Part shown: in pieces, positions 4,043-48,932 of the stretch
Layout of the letters: each line of letters starts with the position of its first letter
Numbering within the stretch: position 1 is the stretch's first letter
From: Cyanidioschyzon merolae
Lineage: Eukaryota
NCBI GenBank assembly: GCA_000091205.1
Contig: AP006494.2
Reading direction: 5' to 3' (one strand)
Length of the DNA stretch: 64,000 nt
The notes under the pieces: model-generated
The model's input: the letters and a program-made list of their open reading frames with translations, nothing else
What the model was told of the DNA's origin: nothing
Databases searched by the model: none
Position numbers and translations under genes: made by a program

Positions 4043-5869
4043 CTAGTGCTCGATGCCTGCTGCCCCGGAAGCACGCGTTATCGAAGTTGCACATCGAAAC
4101 CCTGAAAGCATGAAATCCCGAAGCGCGAGAGCGCGTCCCCAGATACTATCTTCCATGTAGATGACGCGCATCAAGGCGTCGATCACGTCTACTGCTGCGT
4201 GATGTACGGGATACTGCAGCGGCTTTGGAATACGAGTGCGCAGCATCCAGAACCGATCCTGTGTAACACTTTTCATAAGACAGCAGGCGCGCAGCCCCTC
4301 AATACCAGCAAATCGATCGGAACCACTATCTTTCGTACCTCCGAAGGGCAGCGACTGGCATAAATAATTCACGCCAAAATCATTCTCATTCACCATTCCG
4401 ACGAGCAGCTTATTTCGAATCATCGCTGCACGCTTGCGATCAGCAGAGAAGACGCTGCTCCCGAGGCCGTACGCTGAACCGTTCACGATCCGAATTGCCT
4501 CCGCATCACCGTCGAAGGGGGTGATGATCATGACAGGACCGAACACTTCGTTTTGCATGATTCGGCTGTGTAGGGGCACGTCAGTCAAGAGCGTTGGCTC
4601 CCAGTACGAGCGCCCTGCGCGCTTGCCGCCACATAGGAGTCGCGCGCCGTCTTTCACTGCGTCGTTGATCAGTGACTCGAGTTCCCGCAGGGAGGCCTCG
4701 CCCATGGTCATTGCACCGAGATCGACGCCGATACGGAGTGACTGCACGCGCACCTGCATCTCGGCAACGAAACGCTCGTAGCTAGGGCGCTGCACCAGGA
4801 TGCGCTCGATCCCGACACAATTCTGGCCGCTGTTTTGAAAAACACCGCGCATCGCAATATCAAGTGCCTGCTCGAGATCCGCGTCATCACAGACAATAAA
4901 AGCGTCCTTACCGCCGAGCTCCAGGACACAGGGTTTCAGTTGCTCGGCTGCTGCCATGGCCACCTGACGCCCGACTCTCGTCGAACCCGTGAAGAATACT
5001 TTGGCAACACCCTTGTCGACAACGAGCGCCTCGCCGGCGCTGGCGCCGCCAGTGACCAACTGCACCAGTTCCGATGGATGCTTGCAAGCACGAAGCACAT
5101 GCCGCACAAGCTCGACATAGTAGACAGAGCACCAGGAGCTATACTCGCTGCTCTTAACGACGATTGCATTGCCCGCAAACAGGGCCGCTAATATCGGATT
5201 CATGAGGTTGTGGAATGGATAGTTCCACGGCGCAATCGCCGCAATGACACCCAGTGGCTCGAACTGCACCCAGGCGCGTTTATGCATGGTGAGCGGTCCG
5301 ACCGAGCGATACTCGGGAGCCAATGCCCGCTCGCCTTCGCGTAAAAGCCAGCGGATCTTCTCGAGCGTCGTGAGTAGCTCGCCCAGATATGCATCGACGA
5401 ACGTTTTCCCGGTTTCCAGCACGCTAGCCTGCAGGATAGACTCGCGATTCGCCAGAATTGCTTTGCGGAGCGCACGTAGAACTCGGCGCCGCTCAGCAAA
5501 CGACGTCTCTCTCCAGAGTTGCTGGGCATCGGACGCCACTTGAACGCGAGCGCGTACATCTGCCGCACTCTGGTCCAGTACCCATCCTAGCAGTCGACCA
5601 GTTGCTGCCGCCGCGCACCGGTGACAGCGATCGGCTTCGGTTTTCTTTCGACAACAGATGGGTTTTCCGGGTTGATCATCGGCGGTAACAGGAATAAGGA
5701 AAAGGCCGTCCTCCGTGAGGTCCGGCAGGCCCAGTGTCACGCACGGGACGTGCTCTCCGCGTTTGCAGAGCCATCTTGTCAGAATCAAACCAAGCAGCGC
5801 AGACACCAGTGCCGCGATAACGCTCCCACTCGTTAAGGGCAGAGCATGTATGGGTTGGTCAAGGTGCAT
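4043..5869 (-). CDS. Aldehyde dehydrogenase with N-terminal transmembrane segment (ALDH22/MSC7-like)
   Basis: Carries the ALDH catalytic motifs LELGGKDA (Glu) and QNSGQNCVGIER (Cys), and FTGSTRVGR. There is an N-terminal hydrophobic helix. The probable ATG is at 5867-5869. Further upstream, the ORF track's 5' extension reads through the 3' end of the adjacent mobile element. Confidence 0.8.
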   Translation of the reverse strand: MHLDQPIHALPLTSGSVIAALVSALLGLILTRWLCKRGEHVPCVTLGLPDLTEDGLFLIPVTADDQPGKPICCRKKTEADRCHRCAAAATGRLLGWVLDQSAADVRARVQVASDAQQLWRETSFAERRRVLRALRKAILANRESILQASVLETGKTFVDAYLGELLTTLEKIRWLLREGERALAPEYRSVGPLTMHKRAWVQFEPLGVIAAIAPWNYPFHNLMNPILAALFAGNAIVVKSSEYSSWCSVYYVELVRHVLRACKHPSELVQLVTGGASAGEALVVDKGVAKVFFTGSTRVGRQVAMAAAEQLKPCVLELGGKDAFIVCDDADLEQALDIAMRGVFQNSGQNCVGIERILVQRPSYERFVAEMQVRVQSLRIGVDLGAMTMGEASLRELESLINDAVKDGARLLCGGKRAGRSYWEPTLLTDVPLHSRIMQNEVFGPVMIITPFDGDAEAIRIVNGSAYGLGSSVFSADRKRAAMIRNKLLVGMVNENDFGVNYLCQSLPFGGTKDSGSDRFAGIEGLRACCLMKSVTQDRFWMLRTRIPKPLQYPVHHAAVDVIDALMRVIYMEDSIWGRALALRDFMLSGFRCATSITRASGAAGIEH

Positions 5870-5880
5870 CACCTTGACAC

Positions 5881-8316
5881 TACAGTAGTGGCGAGAAGCC
5901 CGCCCTAGACAAGGCGCCGCCAACTAACGTGCAGACGCCTCGCAGTTTTTTTGGACCGGCCATCGACTACTGCTTCCACCTTTTTCTCATATGGTTCGAC
6001 TTTAAGTGATTGTCCAACAAAGTTCCCTCTTGTCAGCTCTGGAGGTCTCGTCTCCAGCACCGCACATTTCCTTATATTGATCGCGGCGATAAAGTCTCGA
6101 TTCAAAAACTCCATACGTTTCTTGCCATCAATGGTTGTGCTAACCAATACGAGTAGCCCTCGAACTTTCGCCATCCTTTCCATTTCCTCTTCCGTCAGCG
6201 GTCCGTGCTTTGCTATATCTTCAGGGCTCCTCTAGCGCCTTTCCATCTCGACCCTTTGAAGTGTACACCCCAGTTCATGGTGTGTAAACGTCGTTCGGAA
6301 CTCATCTACAGGTATCGTAACAAAACGCCTTGTGCACTCCTTGTGCACCCTCGTCGTTGGAGCTGGTGTACACCCTTTTTGTGTCTTCCAGCGCCCTGCT
6401 CCGTACGCTACTACGAGCCTTTGAATTTCATTCTCCTGCAAGGCGCTCAACTGATTGCGAAAATTCGCGAACGCGCGCTGCCTCCCACCGTATAGATTCA
6501 TTCGCAGACGAGCCCACCGGGGCTTGGTATACTCCTCCCACAGCGCATCCCGATGCGCAATGCGAAATTCCATGAACTCCCGAAAAGCTTCAAAGTCCGC
6601 TCCGCGGCTCGTCACCTCGCTCAAAGCTTCCAGGTGCTCTTTCACTCCTGCGTTCCACGTCTCGATTTTCTTCCTCGCATTCCTTATACCGGATTCTCGA
6701 TCGTATCACGCTCTCGAGAATCTCAACAGACGCATGTCTTTCTGACGCAAGTTACCGTCAGCGCCATCTTCCGCACGCTTGGGAGCAGCGATGGCTATGA
6801 TATTCGTATTCCCAGGGTCCGCGCCAACGACAAAGTCGTTATCCTGGACTTTCTGCGTCTCAATACCCGCCTCCTTCTTTTCTTCATGCTTCGTCGCGTC
6901 AACCGTAAAGTCGTTATCCTGTACTTCCTGCGTCGCAGCACCAGCCTCCTCCTTTTCTTCATCCTTCGTGACGGGTGCAGCCGGGGACGGAACTGGACGA
7001 TCTGTCTTCAAGCGCCGATAGTGTACACATATATATGGATACTCCATCGGTTTCGATCACACCAGTGAATACCTTTTGTTTGCTGACTTTGAGACGTTTG
7101 AAATTGAAGATGTTCTTCCAATACGTCTCCCGGTTTTCGCCGGTAAACTCCTCCCTGCTAACATTGAACTCTGGACTGATCTCCCTCATGATGCCACGAA
7201 GGATTCTGGAATCGATAGTCACGAAATGTGACGTGATGTTGCACATTGGAACCACGCTGATGCGCTTACCAATTAGGACAGCCTTCCGTCTCTCCCACTC
7301 TCCATTTGTCTCTTCACTCAGCATCACCTCTGCCTTGCACTCGAGTTCTCGGTCCAGAAACACAAAATAGCGCAGGATGAGGCGATAGTATCTTTCCTGA
7401 TCTTTTTCAGCTCTGATATCTTGTCTGTTGGATTCGCCAGCCCCAGTACAGCACGATGTTCTTGTATCACCGCACGGATTACAGAGGCTTCATTCGTGCT
7501 CCTGCGCGACTTCTTCTTGTCGACGGATTCGATCTCATGTTCACGCTTGCGATGCTTCGTGATGCCATTGATAATCGACCATATCCCCTTGCGAGAGATG
7601 CCAGGGTACAGCGCAGACACGGCGCGTATCATGAATCGTTCGAGATTCATTATCGAATGGTTCCTCAGGTTCGTGAGGTACTTCATCGCCCCATAGTCTT
7701 AAATACCCCAGTCACCCTTGATTCGAATACCCTCGAAGCTGTAAAAGGGATGTTTTTCGTGGAGGGCATCTACTAGCTCATTTTTCCTCCGCGCTTCCTC
7801 TGTACCAAGCATCAGGCGACTAAGAAACGTCTTGTCGCAAAACTCGTCTGGAATCTCGACCGTTTCCATGTGCGTCACGTCTTCGTACATCTCCCTCACC
7901 AAATGCATCAGTCCTAGCGACGCATTGACAATACTCTTCGAGTACGAGTCGACACGTGTTTCGATAGCGTCTCGCAACTTTTCCTTGTAGGGATCCTTGA
8001 TATGTCCAAGAAGAAAGGTTTGCACAACCATCTCGTCGGACAGTTGTCTTTCCCGCAGCCTTCGACGTAGGGCCTCCCCCTTTCGGTCCTTCTTCTCTTC
8101 CTTTTCTTCTGGACTCGGCACTGTTTTTTGTTTTTTTCTGGCAGCCGGCGACCCTGGGCCTCCAGGATCGTCAACTTGCATTTTCATGACTTTCCTTTTT
8201 TGTTTTTTGAAAAAGGACGCCCTTTGAACGCTTCTGTTATATACTGCTAATAATCAATTGAATATTTTTACTTGAGGTTTGAAACAAAATGAACTGAAAA
8301 ACTGTACTTGTCTATA
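5881..8316 (-). mobile_element. TnpB/Fanzor-like (OMEGA-type RuvC nuclease) element, copy 1
   Basis: ~2.4 kb unit, >95% identical to copy 3. It encodes the RuvC-I-like DFVVGADPGNTNIIAIAA motif (ORF 6706..7047) and the RuvC-III RDFIAAINIRKC motif (ORF 5905..6183). Boundaries were set by where copies 1, 2 and 3 stop aligning; the 3' end is ...gggcgggcttctcgccactact(g/a)ta. Confidence 0.7.
5905..8187 (-). pseudogene. Fanzor/TnpB-like nuclease reading frame (interrupted)
   Basis: Collinear ORF pieces: 7699..8187 (N-terminus, basic NLS-like KKQKTVPSPEEKEEKK), 7324..7686, 6959..7363, 6706..7047, 6232..6645 and 5905..6183. Copy 1 has its own TAA at 7696-7698, plus the lesions shared with the other copies. 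Confidence 0.6.
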
Positions 8317-10391
8317 AAGTTAAAGAAAATACAACTTTTACATTAGATCTACATGCTAGAGATCAGGATCACGTTCCCCTTCAACGGCGACATGTGCGTC
8401 GTGTCTCATGCCTGCCTGATCTCCCAGGCGTGCTCACCGAGCGCGATGCAAACTAGTCGCAAACTATTTATCAAAGAACAACTATCTTAAAGCCCCACAC
8501 ATTACGTCCGCCTAAGAGGTCTAGTTTTTCCGGAGAAGCTCTGAAAGTGGGTCAACGCGGGGTGTTCGAGCGACGGCGAAGGAAGCCCACGCCAGGGACC
8601 TTTACCGCAACGAACGGAGGGGCAGAGGCAGTAGCAGCAGAGAATGATGACGAGAGTTCTGAGTAGTCATCCGCCCCTCCGGAAACAACGCTGCAGGTTC
8701 GGGCGCAATTCCTGGATCAATCCTCGGACTCGGGCTCAGTATTACCTCCTACCATGGGTGCCAACCTCAACTTTGGAAACAATCTCGGCGGATGCTTTGG
8801 AAGACGGCTGGCAGTATGTTCACTGCCGAAGCTGGAACAAACGACTTGCCCGCCCATGTGTTTTGGGAGCGGATACGTAGCCGCTGAAAGGGTGGTTCAC
8901 AGAGTATCCCCAGTGGTTGAAGGTTGCTCCACGCGTTCGGCAGCGTAACGGTTGCATTCGAATCGACCTTGACTAGAGTACTTCTGATTCTACGCTAGCG
9001 CTGCGCCAAGCACTCAGTGAACGACTGGAATGCACGAGGCGCTTGTGGCATGTGCACTCACACACCCCGTGGAGGGTGCATCTAAATCGACGACGTATCT
9101 CTCGAGTACCGCAGCACTATTCCCATTCCCGTACGCGCTACGACTCGATAGGTTTCGCATCATGGAATATTTGCGGGATAGCCTCGGAATTGAACTACGA
9201 GATATCGAATTACCAGTACAGTAAAGAGGAACTGATACAAATCGAGGACTCTGCAATAGGAAAAGAGACCCAGCGGGATACGGAGAAGGAGACACAAAGG
9301 CCTCATGATCCACCTAGATGCAAAATAACCAGAGAAAGCAGCTCAGGAAAGAGCCCGAAGAAGACGAAGAAGACCAACAAGAAGAAACAGAAGAATAGAA
9401 AGAAGAGCTCCCGAACGAGCCCATCATGAGTGATCCCCTGAAAGAGCACCCCAGCGGGAACTCAAGAAAGCTGCCGCCAAACTCAATCACCTACTCACAG
9501 CGCTGAAGATCCGAAAAGCCATGCATGCAAGCCTTTAGACCAATTGGCACGCGAGTATGTATATGGGAATCAGAAGATTGCCAGAGAACTGGGACTGCTT
9601 GCACCAGAACGCAACAGTTGCAAACCTCGGTACCTGAAACGACGTACCAAAACTCGGAATGATGAATGCCACCGACTCTATAAGATCGTCAACCGCACCG
9701 CCATACGTGCCAACGCTGGAGACAAGGAAGCGAAAGCAGCGCTACCGGCGCTACAGGCGCAACATGAGGAAGCTATCAAAAGAAAGAAGAAACGTTCCAG
9801 AGAAGACAAACGAGAGGATCGAAACCGCAAAATCGCCTCCCTGACGGAATCTATGCTAGAGAGCACCAACGAAGATGAGACCTGACGCTCCATTCGATCG
9901 AGACTGGACGCACCAGAAAAGTGCTTGGGGCTCACACCAATCGTTCATAAGGAATCGCTGAGGACGGAGAGTGCCTCAGTGAATGAGACCGGGATAGACC
10001 ACGGGACAGAGCTGCATGAAGAAGCAACTGGGCACTGCCAAGACCCAGTCCATTGGTACCAATATGCTGCAGAACTACCGCGCCTCGAACATTACCAGCA
10101 CATGAATCGTTCCAGTGCAAACTACAGATATGATGCGAAAAATATCAATCGTGAAATGAGACAGTGTCGAGCGTCAGCGCACGCAGCACTGCCGCATAGA
10201 CCCACAGCGTCTAGCGACGAGCATCGCCCCAGTCTATCGCACGCGCCGCCGCGAAGATCCGGCACCGCAGGCCGCCGACGTGGGCGTGTCTGCGGCATCG
10301 GCTAGCTTCCAAGCGCCTTCAGCAAGCGCGGCCTCTGCTCCTGTTGCCGCTGCCGCTCGTGGTAAACGTACGTTACCGCACTTTGTGGGGC

Positions 10392-13632: not shown

Positions 13633-14048
13633 GGTTTGTGTTCAAGAAAGAAAAGTTTCCCCGGAAACCCAAAACAATCAACGAGTAAGAGGGTATCGAA
13701 TAACGTCAAGATGTTCGCCGCTCGGGAGCTTTCAACTGGATTCTGTTCCGAGCGTGCTGCGTGCAATCCACTGTTTTTTCTCAGGGTAGCGCAAGAGATC
13801 GAAATCACGATGCAAAGTATCTTATGGAGCTGGGATGGGTTGCCTGTAGGATGTATATTCTTTAGTGAAGTGCCCATGGAGGACTGCATTCATCGTTCAG
13901 GTCAGTCATAGCTCAGTACGCATATGGTTGAGGAACACTGAAAGAATGTAGCGTATGCGGTCCGCGTAAAAACTGATATTCCTTAAAGACAGTTTGCGGT
14001 CAGTGGTAGAAAACGAACAGTTCATCATCTTATGGAAAGCAAAAAGCG

Positions 14049-14640
14049 ATGACAGTAGCCACGACGGGCATCCCTGTTTCTCAACAGCTTGTGCGTCTGG
14101 TCATGAAAACACTGAGAGACAGTCGGAAAGACAGAGTCATCGTTCAAGCATGGCCATCTGCCACTGAAATTGCAATGATAGCGTTCCTGGAAGCTCGCGA
14201 TTGGCATAAAGCACAGAAACGTCGGTTTATTTTCTCAGTTGATGGTGCTTGCTTCGGACGAAAAGGTCGGAGCGTATATGGATATTCGCATAGCAGGTAG
14301 CCTATTGAATGTACGATCGAACTCAAAAAGAACGATGACATCATCTGTTCTGGCGGGACGGATTCATCGGCGGCCTCAGTTTCGATCGTAGAGAAGGCTC
14401 ATCGAACAGCACCCATTTCGTCGAACCATTGTCGACGTTTCCCTGGCGTCTGGCGACGTTTTGCTAATGGACAACGCGGTATTTCATCAGTCCCCTTGCG
14501 TTCGCGGTTTTGCCGATGCTTTCGGGGAAGAGAGCTGATTTACATTCGCCCTTATTCCCCGTGGTTAAACCGCATCGAAGGAGCGTTTTCTATCGTAGAA
14601 AGGAATGATCTCTGCATTGGGTGAATCGCTGATGCGTTCA
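14049..14640 (+). pseudogene. Tc1/mariner (IS630-like) DDE transposase remnant
   Basis: Frameshifted pieces carry the DDE_3 catalytic motifs. RRFIFSVDGACF matches the first D (consensus iFsDEs.f). LLMDNAVFHQS matches the second D (consensus DNAp.H). PYSPWLNRIEGAFS matches PYSPDLNPIE..WS. No intact ORF and no clear TIRs were found. Confidence 0.5.
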
Positions 14641-14719
14641 GCACACGGTGACACACCGGGGCACATGTCGTCTCTCTTCCGCAAGTGATTCACCCTGAGG
14701 GAAGCTTCTTACCTGGGGG

Positions 14720-17087
14720 CATGAAGAAGTGTGTTCTATTTCAAAAATAAACAAGCCAATGGAAAGCTATCGACATGCAGGTCGGGGATCCTGGAGGGCC
14801 ATCTTCGCCGGGTTCGGCGAAGAAAACGGAAAACAATACCGATCCCAGGGGAACAAGAGAAGGCGAAGAAGCACAAGCAGGAAGCCAGGCGTCAAAAGCA
14901 ACTAGAAAGACGACAACACCGCGAGATTTGAGTGAAAGCTTGTCTTCTGAGACATACCAAGGATTCGTACAAGCAAAATTCACAAGAGGCTGTCAGAATC
15001 CTTGTCGCGTCGTACTCCAGGAGGGAACATTAGGCTTCTTTAGGACTCATGCATTTGCTGAAGGAGATGTACGACAACGTGCCGCATATGGAAACAGTCG
15101 ATATTCCAGAGGAATTTTTCAACAAGACCTTTATTCGTCACCTGACGCTTGGCACAGGGGAAGCGCCGAGGAGAAATGAACTGGTGCATGCCCTCCATGA
15201 AAATCATTCCGAGTACCGCTTCAACGGTGTTCGATGCAAGGGTGACTAGGGTATGTACACCTACGAAGCGATGAAGTACCTCACGAATCTGAAGAACAGT
15301 ACGACCATGAACCTCCAACGTTTCATGATACGCGCCATCTCTGCGCTGTACCAGGGCCTCTCTCGCAGAGGGATACGGGCCATCATCGACGGCATCACGA
15401 ACGATAGTACGAGTGAACAGGAGACCGAATTCGTCAAAGAGAAGACATCACGCAGGGGAAAGAATGAAGCTTTTGTGATCGGTGCAGCTATTCAAGAGCA
15501 TCGTGAAGTCTTGGGGCTTGTCAACCCAGCAGAAATGGTATCAGATGTGAAAAAAGATGAGGAATGATGCTCTCCCCTCAACCTGTGCTATTTCGTATTC
15601 CTGAACCGAGAACTCGAACGCAAGGCGGAGACGGAGCAAAGTGAAAAAAAAGAAGAGACAGACAGACAGACGGACAGACGGAAGGCTGTGCTGCTGGAGA
15701 AGCGCTTCAACGTCGATCCGTTGTCCAACATCAAGTCATATTTTGTGACAATCGACTCCAAAATCCTTTACGGCATCATGAGGAAGATCAGTCCAGAGTT
15801 CAATGTTAGCAGGGAGGAGTTTACCGGCGAAAACCGGGAGACGTATTGGAAGAACATCTTCAATTTCAAACGTCTCAAAGTCAGCAAACAAAAGGTATTC
15901 ACTGGTGTGATCGAAACCGATGGAGTATCCATATATATGTGTACACTATCGGCGCTTGAAGACAGATCGTCCAGTTCCGTCCCCGGCTGCACCCGTCACG
16001 AAGGATGAAGAAAAGGAGGAGGCTGGTGCTGCGACGCAGGAAGTACAGGATAACGACTTTACGGTTGACGCGACGAAGCATGAAGAAAACAAAGGAGCGG
16101 ATCCTGCGATGCAGAAAGTCCAGGATAACGACTTTGTCGTTGGCGCGGACCCTGGGAATACGAATATCATAGCCATCGCTGCTCCCAAGCGTGCGGAAGA
16201 TGGCGCTGACGGTAACTTGCGTCAGAAAGACATGCGTCTGTTGAGATTCTCGAGAGCGTGATACGATCGAGAATCCGGTATAATGAATGCGAGGAAGAAA
16301 ATCGAGACGTGGAACGCAGGAGTGAAAGAGCACCTGGAAGCTTTGAGCGAGGTGACGAGCCGCGGAGCGGACTTTGAAGCTTTTCGGGAGTTCATGGAAT
16401 TTCGCATTGCGCATCGGGATGCGCTGTGGGAGGAGCATACCAAGCCCCGGTGGGCTCGTCTGCGAATGAATCTATACGGTGGGAGGCAGCGCGCGTTCGC
16501 GAATTTTCGCAATCAGTTGAGCGCCTTGCAGGAGAATGAAATTCAGAGGCTCGTAGTAGCGTACGGAGCAGGGCGCTGGAAGACACAAAAAGGGTGTACA
16601 CCAGCTCCAACGACGAGGGTGCACAAGGAGTGCACAAGGCGTTTTGTTACGATACCTGTAGATGAGTTCCGAACGACGTTTACACACCATGAACTGGGGT
16701 GTACACTTCAAAGGGTCGAGATGGAAAGGCGCTAGAGGAGCCCTGAAGATATAGCAAAGCACGGACCGCAGACGGAAGAGGAAATGGAAAGGATGGCGAA
16801 AGTTCGAGGGCTACTCGCATTGGTTAGCACAACCATTGATGGCAAGAAACGTATGGAGTTTTTGAATCGAGACTTTATCGCCGCGATCAATATAAGGAAA
16901 TGTGCGGTGCTGGAGACGAGACCTCCAGAGCTGACAAGAGGGAACTTTGTTGGACAATCACTTAAAGTCGAACCATATGAGAAAAAGGTGGAAGCAGTAG
17001 TCGATGGCCGGTCCAAAAAAACTGCGAGGCGTCTGCACGTTAGTTGGCGACGCCTTGTATAGGGCGGGCTTCTCGCCACTACTATAC
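14720..17087 (+). mobile_element. TnpB/Fanzor-like element, copy 2 (chimeric: divergent 5' third)
   Basis: From ~15785 to 17087 it is near-identical to copies 1 and 3. From ~14720 to 15785 it is only ~70-75% identical at the protein level (MHLLKEMYDNVPHMETVDIPEEFF vs MHLVREMYEDVTHMETVEIPDEF). A (GACA)n microsatellite sits at 15655-15690, just upstream of the ~15785 junction. The 3' end is ...ttctcgccactactata. Confidence 0.65.
14775..17062 (+). pseudogene. Fanzor/TnpB-like nuclease reading frame (interrupted)
   Basis: ORF pieces 14775..15179, 15049..15249, 15253..15567, 15688..16008, 15920..16261 (GADPGNTNIIAIAA), 16283..16735 and 16784..17062 (RDFIAAINI). Stops are in-frame at 15565-15567, 16259-16261 and 16733-16735. 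Confidence 0.6.
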
Positions 17088-17157
17088 ACCGCTGCCGTCG
17101 TTCGACTTAGAACGGCTTTTGGTATTGGCGGTGGTACAGCGGCCTTGCCTCGTGTTT

Positions 17158-19026: not shown

Positions 19027-20362
19027 ATCAGTATCCAGTCGGCACAGTGACTGTGCCTCTTCACCAGTGACGGGCTCTTGACGAAAACCGAAGCACCAGG
19101 TACAGTGCTCGACCGCGCCGCTGCAGCACGCAGCGGGCCAACACTGTCAGAGAGTTTCGACGTTGACGTTCGCGCCGAGGCTCGCCAGCGCGCATGATGC
19201 ACGCTCGTCATCTGTTCATTCGTGTTTTGTATGTTTATTCATGAACATATGAAGGCAGTATCTGGTCCAGACGCGCATGGCCTACCCATGTCCGATCGAG
19301 GTCGCGAAACCTTGTTCAATGAATGAGATCGAGTGGACGAAGCCTTTAAAGCCCCAGATGCGTCGATGCTGACAGCTAGCTGGGCAGAGGCCGTCGTTCA
19401 CCTACAGATGCTTCTCCGCTCGATAAGCGAGCGATCAGTCCTCCCGTCAGACTCAGAAAATAGAGGCAGCCACTGTTGGGGTACAACGCGAACCGTGAGC
19501 TCCGTTCCGCAACGCTGGATGCACTGCCGCCGCTGACGCCATGCGGCAGGAGAACGGCTCTTCGTTGCGTTTAGAGGCGGCGCCTGAAGAGTTCGCGGTA
19601 TCTGCGTAGCGCACCGATCAAGCAGGGATCCCTTGCGTAGATCCACAGAATACAGATGTTTGATGGTGTCGGAACGGTGGATCTTAGCCAGTGCCGCCCG
19701 GAGATGTGAAGAAGGTACCTGCTCGGAGAGCGCTTCCACGATGTACTGCAGTCAGATGGATGCCTGGAATGCAAGGTTCGGAAAAATGATCGGTTTTATG
19801 AACGCAACAAAGACTCGCCAATATGAAAAATGCAATTGACTACGAATTTTCCGGTGATTTCGTGAACGCGTCCGTGTGGAATACATCCTATTCATGCTCG
19901 AGTTTGGGATGCAAACAGCAGCGGTTGGTGCATATCCAGAACGTCCACCAAGGGAATCCATCTGATCTTCCTCACTTACAGGATATACATACGGCCAGCG
20001 ATGAGGTCCATCGGATTCATACGTCTGGCTGCTTTCATCTATGCGGTGTAGACACGCTGGACAATGAAGCTTCTACTCCAAGGTGTCGCTTATGAGCCCT
20101 AGAGCCACTGCAACGAAGCTGCTCTTGTCCGGACTTGCAACCCAGCGCAACCCAATGGTCAGCGTCCACTAGAATCCGACACAGCAGCCCGTTACCCGCA
20201 GACATCAGAATGGAAGCGTCTCGCTGCAGGACGATGGGCATGCGCCGCAGTCTTGCCAATGAGCCGGATCAATCGCCGCATCCGTAGAACAAAGAACAGA
20301 GACCAACTACCAACTAGCAACGAGATAACGATTTCTTTCGCCATCTACGATAAACGTTAAAA

Positions 20363-20850
20363 TGAGGAAAAGTTTCCTCGTTGGCGAAAGTTTACCTTAC
20401 AGGCGGAAGGTCCCGCGAGCTGAACGAGTGTGCCCGGCGAGTGCTTCATGCGACTCTACAGAGGCAGATGCCAAAGTAAGATATGAGCAGCAGCTCATCG
20501 TAACGCAATGCTTTCTGGGAATAGGAGCAGGACGCTGCGTCTGGGCGTCGCCCTTGTCGCAGCGGACTCCTCGTATATCGCTTCGCAGTGCCGCAGACAG
20601 TACGTCTGTCTGCGCAGCTCGCAGGCTCCCAGAATGATCATGAATCCAGACCCGGTATCGGGTGAAGCATTCCTCGAGCCGAGGCCCTCAGTGGTATAGC
20701 AAAGCCGTTCGAGCTCCATGAACTATCTGCTCCAGCGGTTCAAGCGCAAAGGTGGATGATTAGGGTAGGTACGAGGCACACACGATAGGACGTATGAAAC
20801 GACCAAAATATCCGAGAAGAAGTATAGGTAATGTAAATTGGAGGTAGGTG
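20363..20850 (+). repeat. Dispersed ~470-bp repeat family R2, copy A
   Basis: Shares the core (t)taccttacaggcggaaggtcccgcgagc and the 3' portion ...cctcgagccgaggccctcagtggtatagc...gataggacgtatgaaacgacc with the copies at 26085-26552 (-), 28140-28386 and 32288-32715. Confidence 0.6.
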
Positions 20851-21071
20851 CTTCATCACGGACGCTTTCCAGAAAGCCGTTATCCTTTCCGAATTCTAGG
20901 ATCCATGGTCAATGGAAACGTCTTGTCAATAAAAAAATCGCGCTCAATGGGCGCACCCCGGAGATCGGGCAGTCAACTGACGCGATGCGCGTGCCGTTGT
21001 TGAAGGGAAACTCAATTGGGATCAGTAACGTGTTGTTCAGCTGTGAACGTCGGATATCGGTCCAGGCCATA

Positions 21072-23497
21072 GCAAAGTACAGTCTTTCAGTTCGTTTTTG
21101 TTTCAAACTTCAAACAAGTCCAGTCAAGTGTTTTTTTGCAGTATATAACAGCAGGGTTCAAAGAGCGTTCTTGTTCAAAAAAAAAGAAAGCTATCAAAAT
21201 GCAAGTCCACGATGCTGGAGGCTCAGTGTCGCCGGCTGCTAGAAGAAAACAAAAAACAGTGCCGAGTCCAGAAGAAAATGAAGAGAAGGAGGACTGAAAG
21301 GGGAGGCTCTACGTCGAAGGCGGCAAGAAAGACAACTGTACGACGAGATGGTGGTGAAAGCTGGTCTTCCTAAACATATCAAGAATCCGTACAGGGAAAA
21401 GTTGCGAGACGCTATCGAAACACGTGTCGACTCGTACTCGAAGAGTATTGTCAATGCGTCGCTAGGACTGATGCATTTGGTGAGGGAGATGTACGAAGAC
21501 GTGACGCACATGGAAACGGTCGAGATTCCAGACGAGTTTTTCGACAAGACGTTTCTTAGTCGCCTGATGCTTGGTACAGAGGAAGCGCGGAGGGAAAATG
21601 AGCTAGTAGATGCCCTCCACGAAAAACATCCCTTTTACAGCTTCGAGGGTATTCGAATCAAGGGTGACTGGGGTATTTACAGCTATGGGGCGATGAAGTA
21701 CCTCACGAACCTGAGGAACCATTCGATAATGAATCTCGAACGATTCATGATACGCGCCGTGTCTGCGCTGTACCCTGGCATCTCTCGCAAGGGGATATGG
21801 TCGATTATCAATGGCATCACGAAGCATCGCAAGCGTGAACATGAGATCGAATCCGTCGACAAGAAGAAGTCGCGCAGGAGCACGAATGAAGCCTCTGTAA
21901 TCCGTGCGGTTATACAAGAACATCGTGCTGTACTGGGGCTGGCGAATCCAACAGACATGATATCAGAGCTGAAAAAGATCAGGAAAGATACTATCGCCTC
22001 ATCCTGCGCTATTTTGTGTTTCTGGACCGAGAACTCGAGTGCAAGGCAGAGGTGATGCTGAGTGAAGAGACAAATGGAGAGTGGGAGAGACGGAAGGCTG
22101 TCCTAATTGGTAAGCGCATCAGCGTGGTTCCAATGTGCAACATCACGTCACATTTCGTGACTATCGATTCCAGAATCCTTCGTGGCATCATGAGGGAGAT
22201 CAGTCCAGAGTTCAATGTTAGCAGGGAGGAGTTTACCGGCGAAAATCGGGAGACGTATTGGAAGAACATCTTCAATTTCAAACGTCTCAAAGTCAGCAAA
22301 CAAAAGGTATTCACTGGTGTGATCGAAACCGATGGAGTATCCATATATATGTGTACACTATCGGCGCTTGAAGACAGATCGTCCAGTTCCGTCCCCGGCT
22401 GCACCCGTCACGAAGGATGAAGAAAAGGAGGAGGCTGGTGCTGCGACGCAGGAAGTACAGGATAACGACTTTACGGTTGACGCGACGAAGCATGAAGAAA
22501 AGAAGGAGGCGGGTATTGAGACGCAGAAAGTCCAGGATAACGACTTTGTCGTTGGCGCGGACCCTGGGAATACGAATATCATAGCCATCGCTGCTCCCAA
22601 GCGTGCGGAAGATGGCGCTGACGGTAACTTGCGTCAGAAAGACATGCGTCTGTTGAGATTCTCGAGAGCGTGATACGATCGAGAATCCGGTATAATGAGT
22701 GCGAGGAAGAAAATCGAGACGTGGAACGCAGGAGTGAAAGAGCACCTGGAAGCTTTGAGCGAGGTGACGAGCCGCGGAGCGGACTTTGAAGCTTTTCGAA
22801 AATTCATGAAAGTTCGCATTGCGCATTGGGATGCGCTGTGGGAGGAGTATACCAAGCCCCGGTGGGCTCGTCTGCGAATGAACCTATACGGTGGGAGGCA
22901 GCGCGCGTTCGCGAATTTTCGCAATCAGTTGAGCGCCTTGCAGGAGAATGAAATTCAGAGGCTCGTAGTAGCGTACGGAGCAGGGCGCTGGAAGACACAA
23001 AAAGGGTGTATACCAGCTCCAACGACGAGGGTGCACAAGGAGTGCACAAGGCGTTTTGTTACGATACCTGTAGATGAGTTCCGAACGACGTTTACACACC
23101 ATGAACTGGGGTGTACACTTCAAAGGGTCGAGATGGAAAGGCGCTAGAGGAGCCCTGAAGATATAGCAAAGTACAGACCGCTGACGGAAGAGGAAATGGA
23201 AAGGATGGCGAAAGTTCGAGGGCTACTCGTATTGGTTAGCACAAGCATTGATGGCAAGAAACGTATGGAGTTTTTGAATCGAGACTTTATCGCCGCGATC
23301 AATATAAGGAAATGTGCGGTGCTGGAGACGAGACCTCCAGAGCTGACAAGAGGGAACTTTGTTGGACAATCACTTAAAGTCGAACCATATGAGAAAAAGG
23401 TGGAAGCAGTAGTCGATGGCCGGTCCAAAAAACTGCGAGGCGTTTGGACAACAGATGGAGACGTTTCGCCTGGGGCGCGTTCGCCGCCTCTACTGTA
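21072..23497 (+). mobile_element. TnpB/Fanzor-like element, copy 3
   Basis: The 5' end aligns with copy 1 from ...at|agcaaagtacag, and includes a TATA-like gcagtatataacag at 21141-21154. Up to 23449 it is near-identical to copies 1 and 2. The last ~45 bp is a divergent (~65% identity) but homologous version of the 3' terminus, ending ...cgccgcctctactgta. Confidence 0.7.
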
Positions 23498-23507
23498 CCG
23501 CTGGTGA
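21202..23507 (+). pseudogene. Fanzor/TnpB-like nuclease reading frame (interrupted; ~760 codons)
   Basis: Pieces: 21202.. (MQVHDAGG..., then a copy-specific 1-nt deletion and TGA), 21348..22055, 22016..22420, 22332..22673 (RuvC-I-like DFVVGADPGNTNIIAIAA at 22542-22595), 22695..23147 (Cys/His-rich RLVVAYGAGRW...GC...C...HHELGC), and 23196..23507 (RuvC-III RDFIAAINI at 23280-23306). Confidence 0.65.
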
Positions 23508-23710
23508 CACCAACGTTTTTCTTTTGAAAGACGTTCGTTGTCAGCGGTGTGCTCGCTGCGCTTTCGCAGCCGATTTTGTGACCCGAACGGCTTTATCGCC
23601 ACTGGGGTGCGGCACCGTGCCCGGTAGCGCTTGTGGGCACTGTTCGAAGCTGTCCGGTGTGTCCAGTGCGGCTTTTATTCTATGAGAATACGCGTACGCA
23701 TAGGAGAGTG

Positions 23711-25546: not shown

Positions 25547-26084
25547 TCGCTGCAGCGCATGAATCCACAGTCGAGGTCTCGTGGCTCGCGGAGCGTGCCC
25601 TCGAAGCCGCGCACTGACGGCCGGGTCTGTCCCGTGACGCCCATCTGCGAGCGACGCAACAAGCGGACACATGTCGACGCGCAATAGCCGCAGATGCACC
25701 TGGCAATGATCCGGACACCGAATATCGCGCCCAAGCTGAACGCATCACCTGAAGCGAACTTGTTCGATGCGAAAGATGTAGCAGCCAGTTGTATGCCGGT
25801 GCTTGCGCATCCAACCATCCAGCCATCCAACCATCCAGCACAGATGCCCATTGCTGCGCTGCGATCGGCAATGCTAGGCGAAAAGCGCGTGCTCCGCCGA
25901 GCCTCCACGTGCGATGGCGCCTGCTGGTGGGATCTCTGGAGCAGCGCCCTGCTGCGGTGCCCTGTCGTTGCCTGCTGGTTTTTTCAGATGACAAAACGTT
26001 TCCATTGACCATGGATCCCTGAAGTCGGAATGGATAATGGCTTTCGTGAAAGCGTCCATGATGAAGCGCCTTCCCTCAAGTTCC

Positions 26085-26552
26085 GTTACCCGTACTTCCT
26101 CTCGTCTGCACTGGTCGTTTCGTATGTTCTATCGTACGCCGAGTGCCTGTTTTGAGCACCCACCGTAGCGCTCACACCACTGAAGCAGATGCTGCACAGA
26201 GACAGAACGGCCTTGTCATGCCACTGAGAACGTCGCCTCGACGCGTAGTTCTCCGACACGGAATCGGGATTCATCTTCAATCTGGGAGACAGCAAGCTCC
26301 ACAGTCAGACCTAATGCCTGTGGCAGCGCGAAACGATAGCTAGGAGACAACCGCAACCATGACGACACCTGGATGCATTCTAACCAATTCTAGTCTCAGA
26401 ATAAACAGCGTTGCGGGCGAGTTGCTCAGGTCGCGCCACTGCACGCGCCACTGGCAGGAGCATGAAGCACGATCCTGGGAGACTCGTCTGGCCCGCGGGA
26501 CCTTCCGCCTATAAGGTAAACGTTCGACAGTACGGAAAGCTTTTCTCCCTTG
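26085..26552 (-). repeat. Repeat family R2, copy C (full length, minus orientation)
   Basis: The reverse complement aligns with copies A and B along its whole length, from ggagaaaagctttcc...taggcggaaggtcccgcgggc to the ...gatagaacatacgaaacgacc 3' region. Confidence 0.55.
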
Positions 26553-26834
26553 TAACATGTATCTTAGGGGGGAAATAAATATTGATATACTTGCCGGTGA
26601 GTCGTGAGTCTCGTACCTTTTTTCGATATCGCGCATTCAACACGCGCACCTGGGAGGTCAGGCCGTCGCGAGACACGACACGCATGTCGCCGCTGGGGAG
26701 AAACCCGATCGTGACCAATCGTTTACTGTTTGTTCTACAGTACAAGTTGTGTTTGCGTTGACGTCGTAGCCGAGTATGGTGTTTCAATTCGATTATGTTT
26801 CAACGCTCATGTGAGCGTATCCAAGCGATTTTTC

Positions 26835-27085
26835 CCAGTTTGTATCAGAAGCGTTCAAAGGGCGTTGTTTTTCAAAAAAATAAAAAGGAAAGATATGGAG
26901 AAGCCAGTCGAGGATCCTGGGGGCGCAGCGTCGCCGGCAACCGGAAAAACAACAAACAAAAAACAGTGCCGAGTCCAGAGGAACGGAGAAGGACGTAGAA
27001 GCAAAACGGTGCGGCCCTACGTGAAATGCTGCAAGAAAGACGACATTACGACGACATGACGGTGAAAGCGTGTCTTCTAAACTGC
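26835..27085 (+). mobile_element. 5'-terminal fragment (~250 bp) of the Fanzor-like element
   Basis: agaagcgttcaaagggcg...ttcaaaaaaa...ggatcctgggggcgcagcgtcgccggc...aaaaaacagtgccgagtccag aligns with the 5' ends of copies 1 and 3, then diverges at ~27085. Confidence 0.5.
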
Positions 27086-28139: not shown

Positions 28140-28386
28140 GCCTGCATCCGCAGACTGTCCAAGCACAAACTGACGATGAGACCCGATTCTACGTCGGGTG
28201 AAGCACCCCTCGAGCCGACGCCCTCTGGGGTATAGAAAAGCTGCTCTAGCTCGATGACCTATCTGCTCCAGCGGTTAAGTTCCCAAGGCGGATGATTAGG
28301 TTAGGTACTAGGCACACACGATAGGACGTATGAAACGACCAGAATATCCGAGAATCAGTATAGGTAATGTAATTTGGAGGTAGGGT
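28140..28386 (+). repeat. Repeat family R2, copy D (5'-truncated, 3' half only)
   Basis: Aligns to the copy A 3' half: ...gggtgaagca(c/t)(c/t)cctcgagccga(c/g)gccctc(t/a)g(g/t)ggtatag...gataggacgtatgaaacgacc...ataggtaatgtaa(a/t)ttggaggtagg. Confidence 0.55.
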
Positions 28387-31943: not shown

Positions 31944-32287
31944 TCGCTTGGCCAGCACCGGCAGACGTCCATATCCTTTACTTTTGTCTTATAAAGTACA
32001 GTTTCATTTCGAGCGCCGCAGCATGCACAGACACTTCCCTCTTCGCATATGACACGTCTTTGACAAGTACAGAAGGCCACCCTTGACACCCTTCTCCGTT
32101 TTCGCTCCCAGTATCTGGAACCGCGACTACGGCTCTTCTGCTGATCAATCCCGGGCGATGTGAGCATCGCCCGCTGTGCACGAAACCGCATGCTGTTCCA
32201 TTCGATGGAGGATGAAAGAACAGAAACTAACCACTGACTAGCAACTCGATAACAGTTTCTTTAGACCTTGACAGTACGCGTTGAAAT

Positions 32288-32715
32288 GGGGAAAAGCTTC
32301 CATATCTTCCAAATTTTACCTTCTAGGCGGAAGGTCCCGCGAGCCGGACGAGTCTGCGGTGCTAGCTAGTGCTTCATGCTTCCTCCAGTGGCAGGTGCAG
32401 TGGCGAGACCTGCACAAGTCGTCCGCAACGCATTTCATCTAGGACTAGACGCAGCAAAGCTACATCTGGGCGTCGCCCTGGTCGCAGTGGACTCCCAGTA
32501 TATCGCTTCGCGCTGCTGCAGACTCCTAGAATGCTGATGTTCGGGGACCCCGCGTCCGATGAACCACGCCTCGAGCCGACGCCCTCAGTGGTATGCCACA
32601 GCTATTCTGTCGCCATGCAGCACCTGCTTCAGCGGTGGAAGCGCTACGGCGGGTGCTCACGGCAGACTAGGTGCACGATAGAACATACAAAACGACCAGC
32701 ACATCCGAAAGGAAT
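32288..32715 (+). repeat. Repeat family R2, copy B
   Basis: ggggaaaagcttcc...taccttctaggcggaaggtcccgcgagc...cctcgagccgacgccctcagtggtat...gatagaacatacaaaacgacc is collinear with copies A and C. Confidence 0.55.
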
Positions 32716-33304
32716 TACAAATCATGAAACTCGGTGGCAGGTGTAGCAGTGCAATGAACGCTCGCCCGAAAGCCAATACCCACCATCAATCCGTGATCCA
32801 TGGTCAATGCAGACGTGTTGCCATCGGCAAAAATCGCCTGCATGATGCGCAAAGCGCCACCCGCTCTGGGGGCATTCAAGCGCATCCATCTTTGTCGCAA
32901 ATTAAGGATCCCACTGCCCGCACGGCGGCGCCAGCAACTGCGCCATCGCGGATCGACGGCGCGAACGCGCGGCGCCGAGTCGGCCATTCGCCAAGAACAG
33001 CAGCGATCTTGGAACGCTTGCTAGGGCGCGCGCCCTGCACCAGGGCGGCCCAAAGTGCGCGGGCACGATGGCGTGCCTCGCAGCCGAGGCAAACACTGCG
33101 CACGGCGGGTCGGGGCACTCTGACCCAGTCGCTGCTGTTGTTGATCACAGGACCGAGGCTAGATGCACGACCTCCAACCGAAGCGGTATACGCTCAACGG
33201 ATGGCTATGGTTTGTCGTTGTGCATAGCGTGACGCAGCTACTCGACTCTGCGTACTTACTACGGATTGCCATTCATTCTTCACGTTTGATACCGCATTTA
33301 AATC

Positions 33305-39928: not shown

Positions 39929-42293
39929 TCGCTTCCGCGAGCGTCACGCGGTGTCCAGGCAGGAGCACGAGGCGCTCTGTGAGTGGCAAAACACCCCGCG
40001 CTTTCTTCGAAAGCCGTGAAACTCGAACACCGCACCTCTATCGGTGCTTGTTTCTCAAAGAAATTTAGGTTTAAGCCAAACACGGAGTTTTTCAGCGTGT
40101 GGTCAGGTTAGCGCGCCACCCACCGGCAAGCCAAGGCAACCAGTAACGAGTACAGTTCGTCTCGTTGCTCCGGGTAACACACGAGGGCTACTCTGGGCAG
40201 GGCACCTCGCGCTATACACTTGGACTTGATACTGCCTTCGTTTACTGGAATTTTCAACGAAATATCTCGAGCATGCCCAGGAGACCATACATACTTCTTT
40301 CGAAACTCGCTGGCTATGTGGAGCGCAGATTCCTGCGGCAGACCAGCTAACCGTCCAACAAACGCGCTAGAGAGAGGCGCCTCGGTAGCCGCTGAGGCGT
40401 GCTCGAGTCCTCATGGACGCTTCTCGAGACACCGTCGCGCCTTGTATGGGGTCTTCTCCACGACTTCATCCCGTCGCACGCTTCCTTGACGTCTCTGTGA
40501 AGCGTATAAACCGCTGCTGGTTGTATGCAGGGACATGTACGCTAAACAGCGCGACGAAGCGACCGGTAGCGGCTCGGAAAGCTCGCCCTCGAGTTGCAAG
40601 CAAGAATGCTGCACTCCGGCTCTTCAGGCTTCAAGCATTCGCTGCCGAGAACCATCCGACATTGTTTTCCATACGCCTCCGTGACTCACTACACCAGTAC
40701 GTGTTCGAATCGAACGCTGAACTAGTTGCTTCGTTTCAGCCTTGATTTTTTTCCCCGGACTTTTCTTTTTTCCAAATGTGCAGCCCGGACATTCGAAATG
40801 CGTCATCGAAGGCCTACGGATTCATGGATGGCGATAGGATTCTGGGTCGAATGTTCGGAGCGGCTCCTTCGACGCTCTTCCGATGGAACTCGTAACGTCA
40901 CCGGAAACGTTATGATTCACCAAGTCATGGAACAGTGGTTCGTTCAATATCTGATATTGTCATCCAATTCATACGGACAAGCCTCTGTTTTTCTCCGTTC
41001 CTTACGTGTCGCATGCGCAAATCACGCAGTCCTCAAGTTTTCGATCTTGCTGTTTCAAGGCAACTCGTGGGCGCTGGAATTTGTCCCGCTGGATTGGCGA
41101 TGTAAACAAATAACGACGACAACGTTGTAGGACTTGCTCAAAGAGCTCATGTCGAAACGTCACAGAACCGCACATGACAAATCATCGATTCCGTTCGAAT
41201 GTGGAATCCTGCTCCCTTTGTGTCTATCGAAGAAACGCCATTCCACAGCGGGACGAGAGTGCTCCTGGGCCTTGATCCCAGAGACTCCCGTGGCATCTGT
41301 TTGCATGGGAACAGGTCTTGGACTGGGACCTCGGTCCTGGCAACCGTCGCTTCCGGTGGAGCGTGCACCACCGCTTTGCACGAAGAGAGCGTTGATGGAT
41401 CCAAGTTACTCGACTTGTTTCATCACGAACAACGCCGCGCACAACAAATCCTCTACCGAAATGAACAGCATGCGCTTGCATATGTCTCGGACAGAGCAAT
41501 CGCCAATGGGATCTTCAAGAGGATGCCCCTGATCGTAGGATATTTTGTCGGGCGCGGAAACGAAGCAGGGCATCGAGGAACGCCCTCTGTACCCGTCAAG
41601 GGCATCCGTCGAGCGACGTGGTCAGCAGTCGTGTGGTACAGGGCCGGCCCCCGAAGCACGATACGATGCGATAGACGTATGAGCAAACCTGCCAACATTC
41701 AAGCGTCACCGTTGTGAATGACGCATCGAAGCTGCATACAATCATGAGGAAATCGGCAAGCGATGCGTAGATCGCGACTTGAACGCTACCATCAACAGTC
41801 TTCGACGACAGACCAGTGAGCTGGGCGGAAACGGAGTGACCAGCGTATTCGAAGCTACAGATAAGCGAGAAGAAAAGGAAGCAGTCACAGAAATACTTGC
41901 AAAGGCTGGTGTTGACAATTGTGTGACGAGTCCCCATTTTAGTTTGCGCACCCCGAGTTCAGGAACCTGTTTCATGTTATGCTGACACGGGTCCAGACAC
42001 CGCTACGCTCTACTGATCCCGGACTAGCATTCCTATCAGAGACAGAGACTTGGTCCAGTCAGGGATCTTCAGGTAATCACGGCCTCTCTCGGACGCATAC
42101 TGCGATACCGGATGTGTACCGAGGTTGCCGCAGACGCGGAACTCGCCCTGTGCAGTCGCCGAAAAACGTGCGGCACGTCTTCTGCAGGCGACGCTTCATT
42201 CCGCTACACAAGGCGTATTCCCGCCGCCCGGCGACGAGTCGACAACTGCGAGAGCTGCAGAACATGCGAAGCTTCTCCTGAACTCTGTGCAGA

Positions 42294-48589: not shown

Positions 48590-48932
48590 ATACTGATGGC
48601 GAAAACTCCCGGTGCTGCAGTGCTATTGAACAGCTACGGTACCGCGTTTCGCTGGTACCGCCAGCACGTTCGCGAGATTCGCTGCGCAGCGACCTGGGCA
48701 CGGTGGCGGCGCTGCAGCAGCGTCGCCTAGCAGCCGTTGCTACGCGTCTTCGGCTGAGAAGGGGCCGCAACGAGGGCAGGACGCTCGTTCGGATCACTGA
48801 CATCGTCGCTATCCATGTCAGCACAACATAGGACAGGTCCATCTAGCGAACTCGGGTATACACGCTGGAGGCTGGGTATCTGCCCGCGGTCGTTATGATC
48901 ACCAGGCCTGACGGGTTTTCAGTGAATGCTTC

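Follow-up and report, generated by a model that had tools for sequence, protein, structure and literature searches.

The 64-kb stretch of Cyanidioschyzon merolae contig AP006494.2 analysed here (the window) is eukaryotic, gene-dense and nearly without introns, with a GC content of ~55%; its host genes include those for an aldehyde dehydrogenase (ALDH), Sybindin/TRAPPC, a bZIP factor, CCT5, HSF, a plastid-type GcpE and SHPRH. The CCT5 protein has 99% identity to the representative of a 90%-identity cluster of which C. merolae 10D BAM80858.1 is a member, as compared with 87% for Cyanidiococcus and 73% for Cyanidium, which marks the host as C. merolae or a very near relative. A repeat of 2.4-2.6 kb is present three times in the window, and the similarity of its copies reflects a real repeat rather than chance. 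Each copy is a unit of a Fanzor element, numbered here as copies 1 to 3. Our subject is a 45-bp segment at the 3' side of copy 1, which a first-pass annotation of this DNA had read as the conserved terminus of the element and as the junction between a guide-RNA (omegaRNA) scaffold and its guide. We found that this segment is an internal piece of the 3' module of the element and not its end. We consider it probable that the module is a Fanzor omegaRNA scaffold and that copy 3 came to differ in this region through gene conversion.

5881-8447, minus strand: copy 1, Fanzor unit, pseudogene with the shared frameshifts and in-frame stops and one private stop
14727 to ~17135, plus strand: copy 2, Fanzor unit, pseudogene, with an open reading frame (ORF) remnant from ATG 14775 to a stop at 17060-17062
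20937 to ~23549, plus strand: copy 3, Fanzor unit, pseudogene, ATG 21199
5881-5925, minus strand: the studied 45 bp of copy 1, comprising the last 6-7 Fanzor1 codons (...HVSWRRLV), TAG at 5905-5907 and 24 non-coding nt

The units belong to the published family CMe-1A, to the description of which they were matched, not to the Repbase consensus. CMe-1A is a Fanzor1 element of C. merolae with ~150 copies, each ~80% identical to the consensus (Bao & Jurka 2013, Mob DNA 4:12, PMC3627910). The element measures ~3 kb, has no terminal inverted repeats (TIRs) and no known target-site duplications (TSDs), and its 5' 635 bp correspond to a separate repeat, TE-N2_CMe (PMC3627910). In copy 1, the repeated 5' module extends upstream to at least 8900.

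Every window copy retains a single decayed long ORF, in which GADPGNTN, AYGAG...VDEFRTS and NRDFNAAINI can be recognised. The aspartate motifs of RuvC-I and RuvC-III (GADPGNTN and NRDFNAAINI) stand in canonical order and are kept in the window copies and their relatives. By motif inspection, AYGAG sits at the canonical RuvC-II position without a Glu, and an alternative Glu is found in VDEFRTS, 35 residues further on. In the rearranged catalytic site of Fanzor proteins, the canonical RuvC-II Glu is lost and an alternative Glu lies ~45 residues downstream (Jiang et al. 2023, PMC10530073); as far as motifs can tell, the pattern of the window ORF is that of this rearranged site. Foldseek against the PDB returned six significant matches, all of them Fanzor1 proteins (SpuFz, GtFz and PpFz; E = 1.8e-7 to 1.1e-4), for a low-confidence AlphaFold2 (AF2) model, while a PDB sequence-profile search found nothing. 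Pfam and NCBIfam scans of single ORF fragments and of P0001, a nearly intact relative of 752 aa, gave no usable match: Pfam PF07282 aligned only weakly to P0001, over the NRDFNAAINI stretch alone (E = 0.23), and it matched a distant relative, P0039, with E = 2.4e-8. The window ORF is a Fanzor1-type TnpB homologue.

Relatives were collected by scanning JGI metagenome contigs with the C-terminal 136 aa, which yielded 80 loci, ~50 of them non-redundant (48 in the counts of stops and frames). All three window ORFs are broken by two common frameshifts and two common in-frame stops in addition to private lesions, which in copy 3 are a frameshift in the N-terminal part, the loss of 1 nt from the A-run at 23427-23432 and a TGG replacing the stop at 23471-23473. 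Because the relatives carry a single unbroken ORF across the same positions (P0001 is 72% identical), we read the window copies as pseudogenes and not as spliced genes. The same continuity rules out introns as the cause of the split ORFs, and the long clean ORFs of neighbouring host genes rule out stop-codon reassignment.

Two further features of the ORF may be recorded. A 75-bp tandem repeat just upstream of RuvC-I (6820-6969, minus strand; 15998-16147 and 22410-22559, plus strand) encodes an acidic, lysine-rich unit (...KHEEKKEAG.ETQKVQDNDF.VDA), of which the window copies have two and both P0001 and P0007 at least four. At 23085-23150 (THHELGCTLQRVEMERR*), HHELGC...EKCQR follows (D)EFRTS in place of the usual CxxC...CxxC zinc ribbon and may be an H/H/C/C variant of it; an in-frame stop falls at its second Cys codon region in all three window copies.

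The right end and the predicted fold of the 3' module

Copies 1 and 2 do share the 3' sequence quoted in the first-pass annotation, with three differences, and part at 5881/17086; the end of copy 3 (23450-23497) is indeed diverged, with 30/48 = 62.5% identity to copy 2 (72% over 72 nt). The positions 5881, 17086 and 23497 are nevertheless not the ends of the element. Copies 2 and 3 and almost all of the ~50 non-redundant relatives remain homologous for 40-55 nt past CCACTACTGTA, the two window copies for 49-52 nt, and unrelated sequence starts only after the foot of a terminal hairpin, P4, which usually reads ...GGTG (also ...GTGTG). Judged by where this homology ceases, the true right ends are at ~17135 (copy 2) and ~23549 (copy 3). 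The short sequences past copies 2 and 3, which had been called oddly similar flanks, are alike as stated but belong to the element, as the 5' arm of P4, and are not guide/target pairs.

A hidden Markov model (HMM) of the full module matched the window at 16990-17127 and 23402-23538, and a covariance model (CM) found exactly three window sites, those of copies 1, 2 and 3; in copies 2 and 3 the matches of the two models taken together reach over 16990-17130 and 23402-23546. In copy 1 (5977-5881), the HMM match halts at model position 97 of 149, having covered positions 1-97 only; copy 1 therefore breaks off at 5881, with the ALDH start codon 10 nt further on, and has lost P4 together with the scaffold/guide junction. 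That junction would sit at the P4 foot, ~49-52 nt downstream of the 45 bp. The abrupt divergence between copies 1 and 2 is this truncation, an outcome that the annotation itself had named as contrary to its claim. Directly past the truncated end lies a perfect 9-bp hairpin (5860-5881, minus strand; GTCAAGGTG-ATG-CACCTTGAC), the loop of which is the likely ALDH ATG and the sequence of which is unrelated to P4.

The module extends from ~62 nt before the Fanzor stop to the right end (about -62 to +75 nt). It consists of a ~95-nt domain 1, a linker of 1-3 nt and the terminal hairpin P4 of 40-55 nt, the foot of which is the last base of the element.

5881-5973, minus strand: candidate scaffold of copy 1, domain 1 only (P1 closing P1b, P2 and P3), from HMM match and fold
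16994-17135, plus strand: complete candidate omegaRNA scaffold of copy 2, from folds and a CM match of 121.7 bits
23405-23549, plus strand: complete candidate scaffold of copy 3, second lineage variant (domain 1, 23405-23496; P4, 23497-23549)
16994-17001 with 17078-17085, plus strand: copy 2 helix P1, predicted fold
17008-17013 with 17020-17025, plus strand: copy 2 helix P1b, predicted fold
17026-17034 with 17048-17056, plus strand: copy 2 helix P2, predicted fold
17063-17068 with 17072-17077, plus strand: copy 2 helix P3, predicted fold
~17087-17135, plus strand: copy 2 terminal hairpin P4, predicted fold

On the sense strand, all variants fold alike. The long-range helix P1 (GCAGUAGU / ACUACUGU) closes domain 1, the interior of which holds P1b, P2 (GGCGUCU with AGACGYY, over the last codons) and P3, a small GGCG/CGCC hairpin just past the stop. 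The studied 45 bp form the 3' half of this domain: they contain hairpin P3 in full, together with the 3' strands of P2 and P1. Compared with dinucleotide shuffles, the sense fold reached z = -4.5 in copy 2 (-64.1 kcal/mol; antisense z = -1.8) and z = -3.5 in copy 3 (-60.4 kcal/mol; antisense z = -2.4), and domain 1 of copy 1 alone reached z = -3.8 (-43.4 kcal/mol, sense); among the relatives, sense z-scores were -6.6 (L063), -4.2 (L001) and -3.2 (L067). Domain-1 pairs were formed in 85% of cells as against 38-57% with slid partners. Between copies 2 and 3, domain 1 has 21 differing columns, nine of them in loops and six in P2, where pairing is kept in 6/6 cases.

The hairpin P4 occurs in two sequence variants with different outer stems (...CGUCGUUCGA-CUU-UCGAACGGCG... 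and ...AACGUUUUUC-UUUU-GAAAGGCGUU...). The sense form is the more stable, with a mean minimum free energy of -22.7 kcal/mol as against -16.4 kcal/mol for the antisense (Wilcoxon p = 1.5e-7), and a hairpin has 3.75 G·U pairs on average. The 5' arm pairs best with the 3' region of its own copy when compared with the arms of other copies (permutation p = 2e-4). In an alignment anchored at the ends, pairing at the five foot pairs reaches 95% and their covariation is 0.241 as compared with 0.129 +/- 0.018 in shuffles (reached by 0/500). In a CM-fitted alignment of 60 matches, 26 pairs, mostly in P4, are changed on both sides, as against 13.3 +/- 2.1 after shuffling (0/500). A coding motif ~90 nt before the stop, AAAGTCGAAC (16950-16965 / 23361-23376), is the exact complement of the variant-1 5' arm GTTCGACTTT, and RNAalifold pairs the two in variant-1 elements; as a conserved alternative helix this pairing was rejected, since AAAGTCGAAC is unchanged in variant-2 elements.

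The terminus had also been called hypervariable, which does not hold for the family. The mean column entropy of the 27 non-coding nt after the stop is 0.49 bits, compared with 0.6-0.9 bits in upstream ORF windows, and family-wide the region is as conserved as the ORF. TAG or TAA occupies the same column in 37/48 non-redundant copies, and the frame is kept in 44/48. One could ascribe this conservation to protein coding, namely a basic C-terminal tail (...GGRSKKAGRRLHVSWRRFV*), combined with recent ancestry, the folds being incidental to GC-rich sequence: protein is encoded by ~21 of the 45 bp, many of the copies are recent or have been homogenised, and domain-1 covariation is not significant on an unbiased alignment. 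This account is highly unlikely in our view. Conservation in the 27 nt past the stop equals that of first and second codon positions, without codon periodicity; T/C toggles in the 3' strand of P2 alter amino acids (F/L/S) and yet stay pairable with G; P4 is non-coding and covaries; and the stability lies far above that of dinucleotide shuffles on the sense strand only.

Mosaic identity among the three copies

The identity of the three copies changes in steps along their length. In copy-3 coordinates and by sliding window, copies 1 and 3 are 62-77% identical from 20937 to ~21227; from 21227 to 22175 they are 95-100% identical, with copy 2 at ~60-85% to both; and over the 1.26 kb from 22175 to 23434 all three are 97-100% identical. 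Over the last ~60 nt, identity is 97% between copies 1 and 2 and 68% between copy 3 and either of them. The breakpoints are sharp at both ends of the copies, the low-identity parts fit the usual family divergence of ~20-30%, and the shared disabling mutations lie mostly inside the near-identical blocks. The statement that everything upstream of the terminus is near-identical therefore stands for 22175-23434 (all three copies) and 21227-23434 (copies 1 and 3) but fails farther upstream, where copy 2 and the first 300 bp of copies 1 and 3 show the low values just given.

The simplest reading of these sequences is that the copies are a gene-conversion or recombination mosaic of clustered neighbouring pseudogenes, with the ends lying outside the tracts. 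The three copies, which lie within 18 kb, would have been partially homogenised by gene conversion, and a conversion tract would have stopped ~65 nt before CTACTGTA in copy 3, so that older lineage sequence was kept at its end. The older-lineage end of copy 3 still folds in the same way.

The first-pass annotation had instead taken the 45 bp as true end and junction and had explained the divergence of copy 3 by end-specific selection or guide-adjacent turnover. Its observations are sound in that the region does lie at the 3' end of a Fanzor ORF and that copy 3 drops there to 62.5% identity after 1.26 kb at 97-100%. We give this explanation almost no chance of being correct, and a conversion mosaic with breakpoints at both copy ends makes it superfluous. 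The drop is not specific to the 3' end, because the same kind of drop occurs at the 5' side (in copy 2 upstream of 22175, and between copies 1 and 3 over their initial 300 bp). The element continues for 49-52 nt in copies 2 and 3 and likewise across the family, the conservation of the region equals that of the ORF family-wide, and the copy-3 variant is an ordinary family variant, with related motifs in another locus (L064).

A metagenome locus bears on the same region of copy 2: L003 (Ga0080006_1261277), compared with window 13654-17052, has the 5' flank of the copy-2 locus and its body (98% identical) joined to a terminus of the copy-3 type. It could reflect a conversion that is polymorphic among natural strains, or it could be chimeric, misassembled through the identical central block; its contig stops at the copy-3-type terminus, which makes the two origins indistinguishable, and it was not used as evidence.

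A probable guide-RNA scaffold and other possible roles for the module

In our reading, CMe-1A most likely encodes its omegaRNA scaffold in this module, because the layout of the module matches that of experimentally defined Fanzor guide RNAs: it is a structured module on the sense strand that starts inside the ORF, spans the stop, ends at the right boundary and is followed by copy-specific sequence. The omegaRNA of GtFz1 overlaps 17 ORF codons (PMC10432273), and other Fanzor guide RNAs abut the right end (PMC10530073). The flanks past ...GGTG are unrelated between loci. That the 45 bp are part of a Fanzor guide-RNA scaffold is, as a general idea, plausible and moderately supported: the Fanzor1-type ORF, the location and a conserved, structured, sense-biased 3' module speak for it, and what falls away from the first-pass annotation are the terminus, the junction and the hypervariability.

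By analogy with known systems, the scaffold would be cut out of the Fanzor transcript and the 15-20 nt of host DNA after P4 would serve as the guide, which places the predicted scaffold/guide junctions at ~17135/17136 and ~23549/23550. Beyond the boundaries and conservation of the module, which are observed, and its structure, which the folds support, its transcription, processing, protein binding and guiding, together with a target-adjacent motif (TAM), would follow the same analogy. RNA from the window copies could act only with Fanzor protein from an intact copy elsewhere, because all three window ORFs are dead. The candidate guide flanks each have a single occurrence in the window.

17136-17155, plus strand: predicted guide-equivalent flank of copy 2, host sequence, by analogy with SpuFz1 (PMC10432273)
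23550-23569, plus strand: predicted guide-equivalent flank of copy 3, single in the window

Sense-specific structure directly past a stop codon might alternatively be a 3' untranslated region (3'-UTR) element of the Fanzor mRNA that acts in 3'-end formation, stability or translational control, without a guide function. Such an element would suit the compact genes of C. merolae, since the host genes next to P4 begin only ~20-85 nt away. We think it quite improbable, given that the structured domain starts inside the ORF and that conservation halts precisely at the transposon boundary and gives way to variable sequence, as in Fanzor and TnpB guide RNAs.

The position of P4 raises another alternative, in which the terminal module, and mainly P4, is a DNA-level cis-element of transposition, that is, a single-strand hairpin or a binding site for a transposase that would mobilise the TIR-less CMe-1A and TE-N2_CMe, rather than a guide scaffold. 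The end of P4 coincides exactly with the element boundary; the lack of TIRs, in our searches and in the published description, calls for some recognition of non-TIR ends; and single-stranded DNA hairpins also tolerate G·T pairs. In addition, the 3' end of repeat X, which lies directly upstream of copy 3 and fits TE-N2_CMe, weakly resembles P4 (AACGTTTTGTCATCTGAAA vs AACGTTTTTCTTTTGAAA), a likeness that is marginal, as 18/1000 shuffles score as high. We nonetheless regard a purely DNA-level role as unlikely. It leaves both the conservation and the structure of domain 1 across the stop unexplained, no transposase gene was found in the units or the inspected flanks, and the 5' boundary of the unit shows no matching hairpin or shared target motif. 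Features of Helitrons are absent as well: the elements end in ...GGTG or ...GTGTG at the hairpin foot with no 3' CTRR, and the hairpin lies at the very end and not 10-12 nt inside, which rules out a Helitron-type 3' end.

A DNA-level role of P4 and an RNA role could coexist, as at the right ends of TnpB and IS200/IS605 elements. In its strongest form, which we offer as a speculation with little probability, P4 would be both the guide-proximal stem of the RNA and a single-stranded DNA hairpin for end recognition in the TIR-less and TSD-less CMe-1A, and perhaps in TE-N2_CMe. If true, this would point to an IS200/IS605-like single-strand "peel-and-paste" mechanism or to Fanzor-assisted homing in a red alga, and it might account for the many tandem and head-to-head arrays as well as for the local gene conversion.

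Several results weigh against the guide-RNA scaffold. An Rfam scan of the 3' region found no relevant family. Domain-1 covariation is not above shuffles on an unbiased MAFFT alignment (33-112 of 500 reach the observed value), variation in P2 is limited to one-sided G·U/G-C toggling, and the strongest covariation figures come from structure-informed alignments (end-anchored or CM-fitted), which favour structure. RNAalifold gave no consensus structure for 48 sequences with ragged flanks, after which explicit pair counting, per-sequence folds and the covariance model were used; with 14 sequences it recovered P1 and P1b and drew the P2 region otherwise. Most copies are pseudogenes, so that part of the conservation is shared ancestry, and the AF2 model behind the Foldseek matches has low confidence (pLDDT 53.6, TM about 0.25-0.3). 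Variant 2 of P4 holds runs of U5 and U4, which would stop RNA polymerase III, and the RNA would thus need to derive from a transcript of RNA polymerase II. Finally, no left end of the element could be defined and hence no TAM or empty target site, and the upstream sequence of the relatives has no common target motif. Upstream of the unit start ATCGCGCTC stand several repeat families (X in direct orientation, X inverted and two others); a TIR search between the right end and the upstream sequence at four loci found none, and no TSD was definable at the unit ends.

CMe-1A, repeat X and known guide-RNA systems

Three further occurrences of repeat X lie in the window, which thus contains both fused and solo forms, along with a solo 5' fragment of a fourth Fanzor unit.

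20291-20937, plus strand: repeat X, ~647 bp, directly upstream of copy 3, fitting the CMe-1A 5' module TE-N2_CMe
25979-26580, minus strand: repeat X
32215-32823, plus strand: repeat X
28194-28384, plus strand: repeat X, partial
26649-27082, plus strand: fourth Fanzor unit, solo 5' fragment adjoining an inverted copy of repeat X

Both in the window, at 26.6 kb, and at many loci from the metagenomes, the 5' end of X abuts the start of a Fanzor unit head-to-head with a gap of ~7 nt; at copy 3, the 3' end of X abuts the unit head-to-tail. Just upstream of X at 20291, the sequence resembles an inverted and degraded unit start. The last ~70 nt of X (20860-20940; 25979-26060) contain a small hairpin (ACGCTTTCC-AGAAAGCCGT) and the end motif AACGTTTTGTCA..., which are weakly like variant 2 of P4 (23497-23549). 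This likeness could reflect a 3' cis-element shared by TE-N2_CMe and CMe-1A, or it could be due to chance.

Fanzor units in the metagenomes are often arranged in tandem with a period of ~3.1 kb and a shared spacer of 0.5-0.8 kb (L010:81-238, L018/L019:195-334, L048/L050/L080), and at L012:700-797 the terminal CCACTACTGTA and P4 module is itself duplicated in tandem. The cluster in the window comprises 3.5 Fanzor copies in 21 kb. The arrays suggest local duplication and not only dispersed transposition. Two other repeat pairs in the window are unrelated to the Fanzor elements: 48916-49302 / 55172-55558 (387 bp, 97% identity) and 40837-41401 / 55745-56316 (inverted, ~570 bp, 65% identity).

The element itself has been published, and its candidate 3' RNA module is new, yet it is the expected anatomy of a Fanzor element. 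In the literature searched, CMe-1A was known only from the 2013 description, which includes no guide RNA. Our analysis fixes the right boundary of CMe-1A and provides a concrete scaffold candidate of ~140 nt (16994-17135 and 23405-23549), with the predicted guide following ...GGTG, for a Fanzor1 of a thermo-acidophilic and genetically tractable red alga. The probable exchange of sequence between neighbouring copies is also relevant to any study that relies on the divergence of copies for the age of insertions or for signs of selection on the ends of a transposon.

The window units agree with CMe-1A as described in their C. merolae host, their ~3-kb length, the single Fanzor1 ORF, a copy divergence of ~20% and the absence of TIRs, and the 5' module of ~635 bp corresponds to repeat X, which is found here both joined to copy 3 and solo. 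In contrast, most metagenome relatives have other 5' modules or an inverted X. The 2013 paper predates the discovery of RNA guidance; neither an RNA module at the 3' end nor a terminal hairpin appears in it, and it describes no tandem arrays and no gene conversion.

Among guide RNAs defined by experiment, those of SpuFz1 and GtFz1 (Saito et al. 2023, PMC10432273; Xu et al. 2024, PMC11423790) offer the closest comparison; they too belong to Fanzor1 proteins, from which the only significant fold matches of the low-confidence AF2 model came. The predicted scaffold of CMe-1A is longer (~140 nt vs 75 nt in SpuFz1), it overlaps ~20 codons as compared with none in SpuFz1 and 17 in GtFz1, and the right end of CMe-1A has no inverted repeat and the module no sequence similarity to those RNAs. 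Like them, it lies on the sense strand, between or overlapping the stop and the right end, and conservation ends at the element boundary with a variable flank next to it, which in CMe-1A is the predicted guide. The two stems and linker of SpuFz1 have a counterpart in the two predicted domains and short linker described here.

Compared with the TnpB systems of IS200/IS605 and IS607, CMe-1A is eukaryotic and has no TnpA partner, its catalytic site is rearranged (no RuvC-II Glu; Glu in VDEFRTS), and no conserved target or TAM motif was seen beside its 5' boundary. What it shares with them is a guide RNA, predicted in the case of CMe-1A, that derives from the 3'-terminal part of the nuclease transcript together with the right transposon end. 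A hairpin at the right end is likewise common to both, and by analogy the flanking DNA would act as the guide and the expected role would be the homing or retention of the element.

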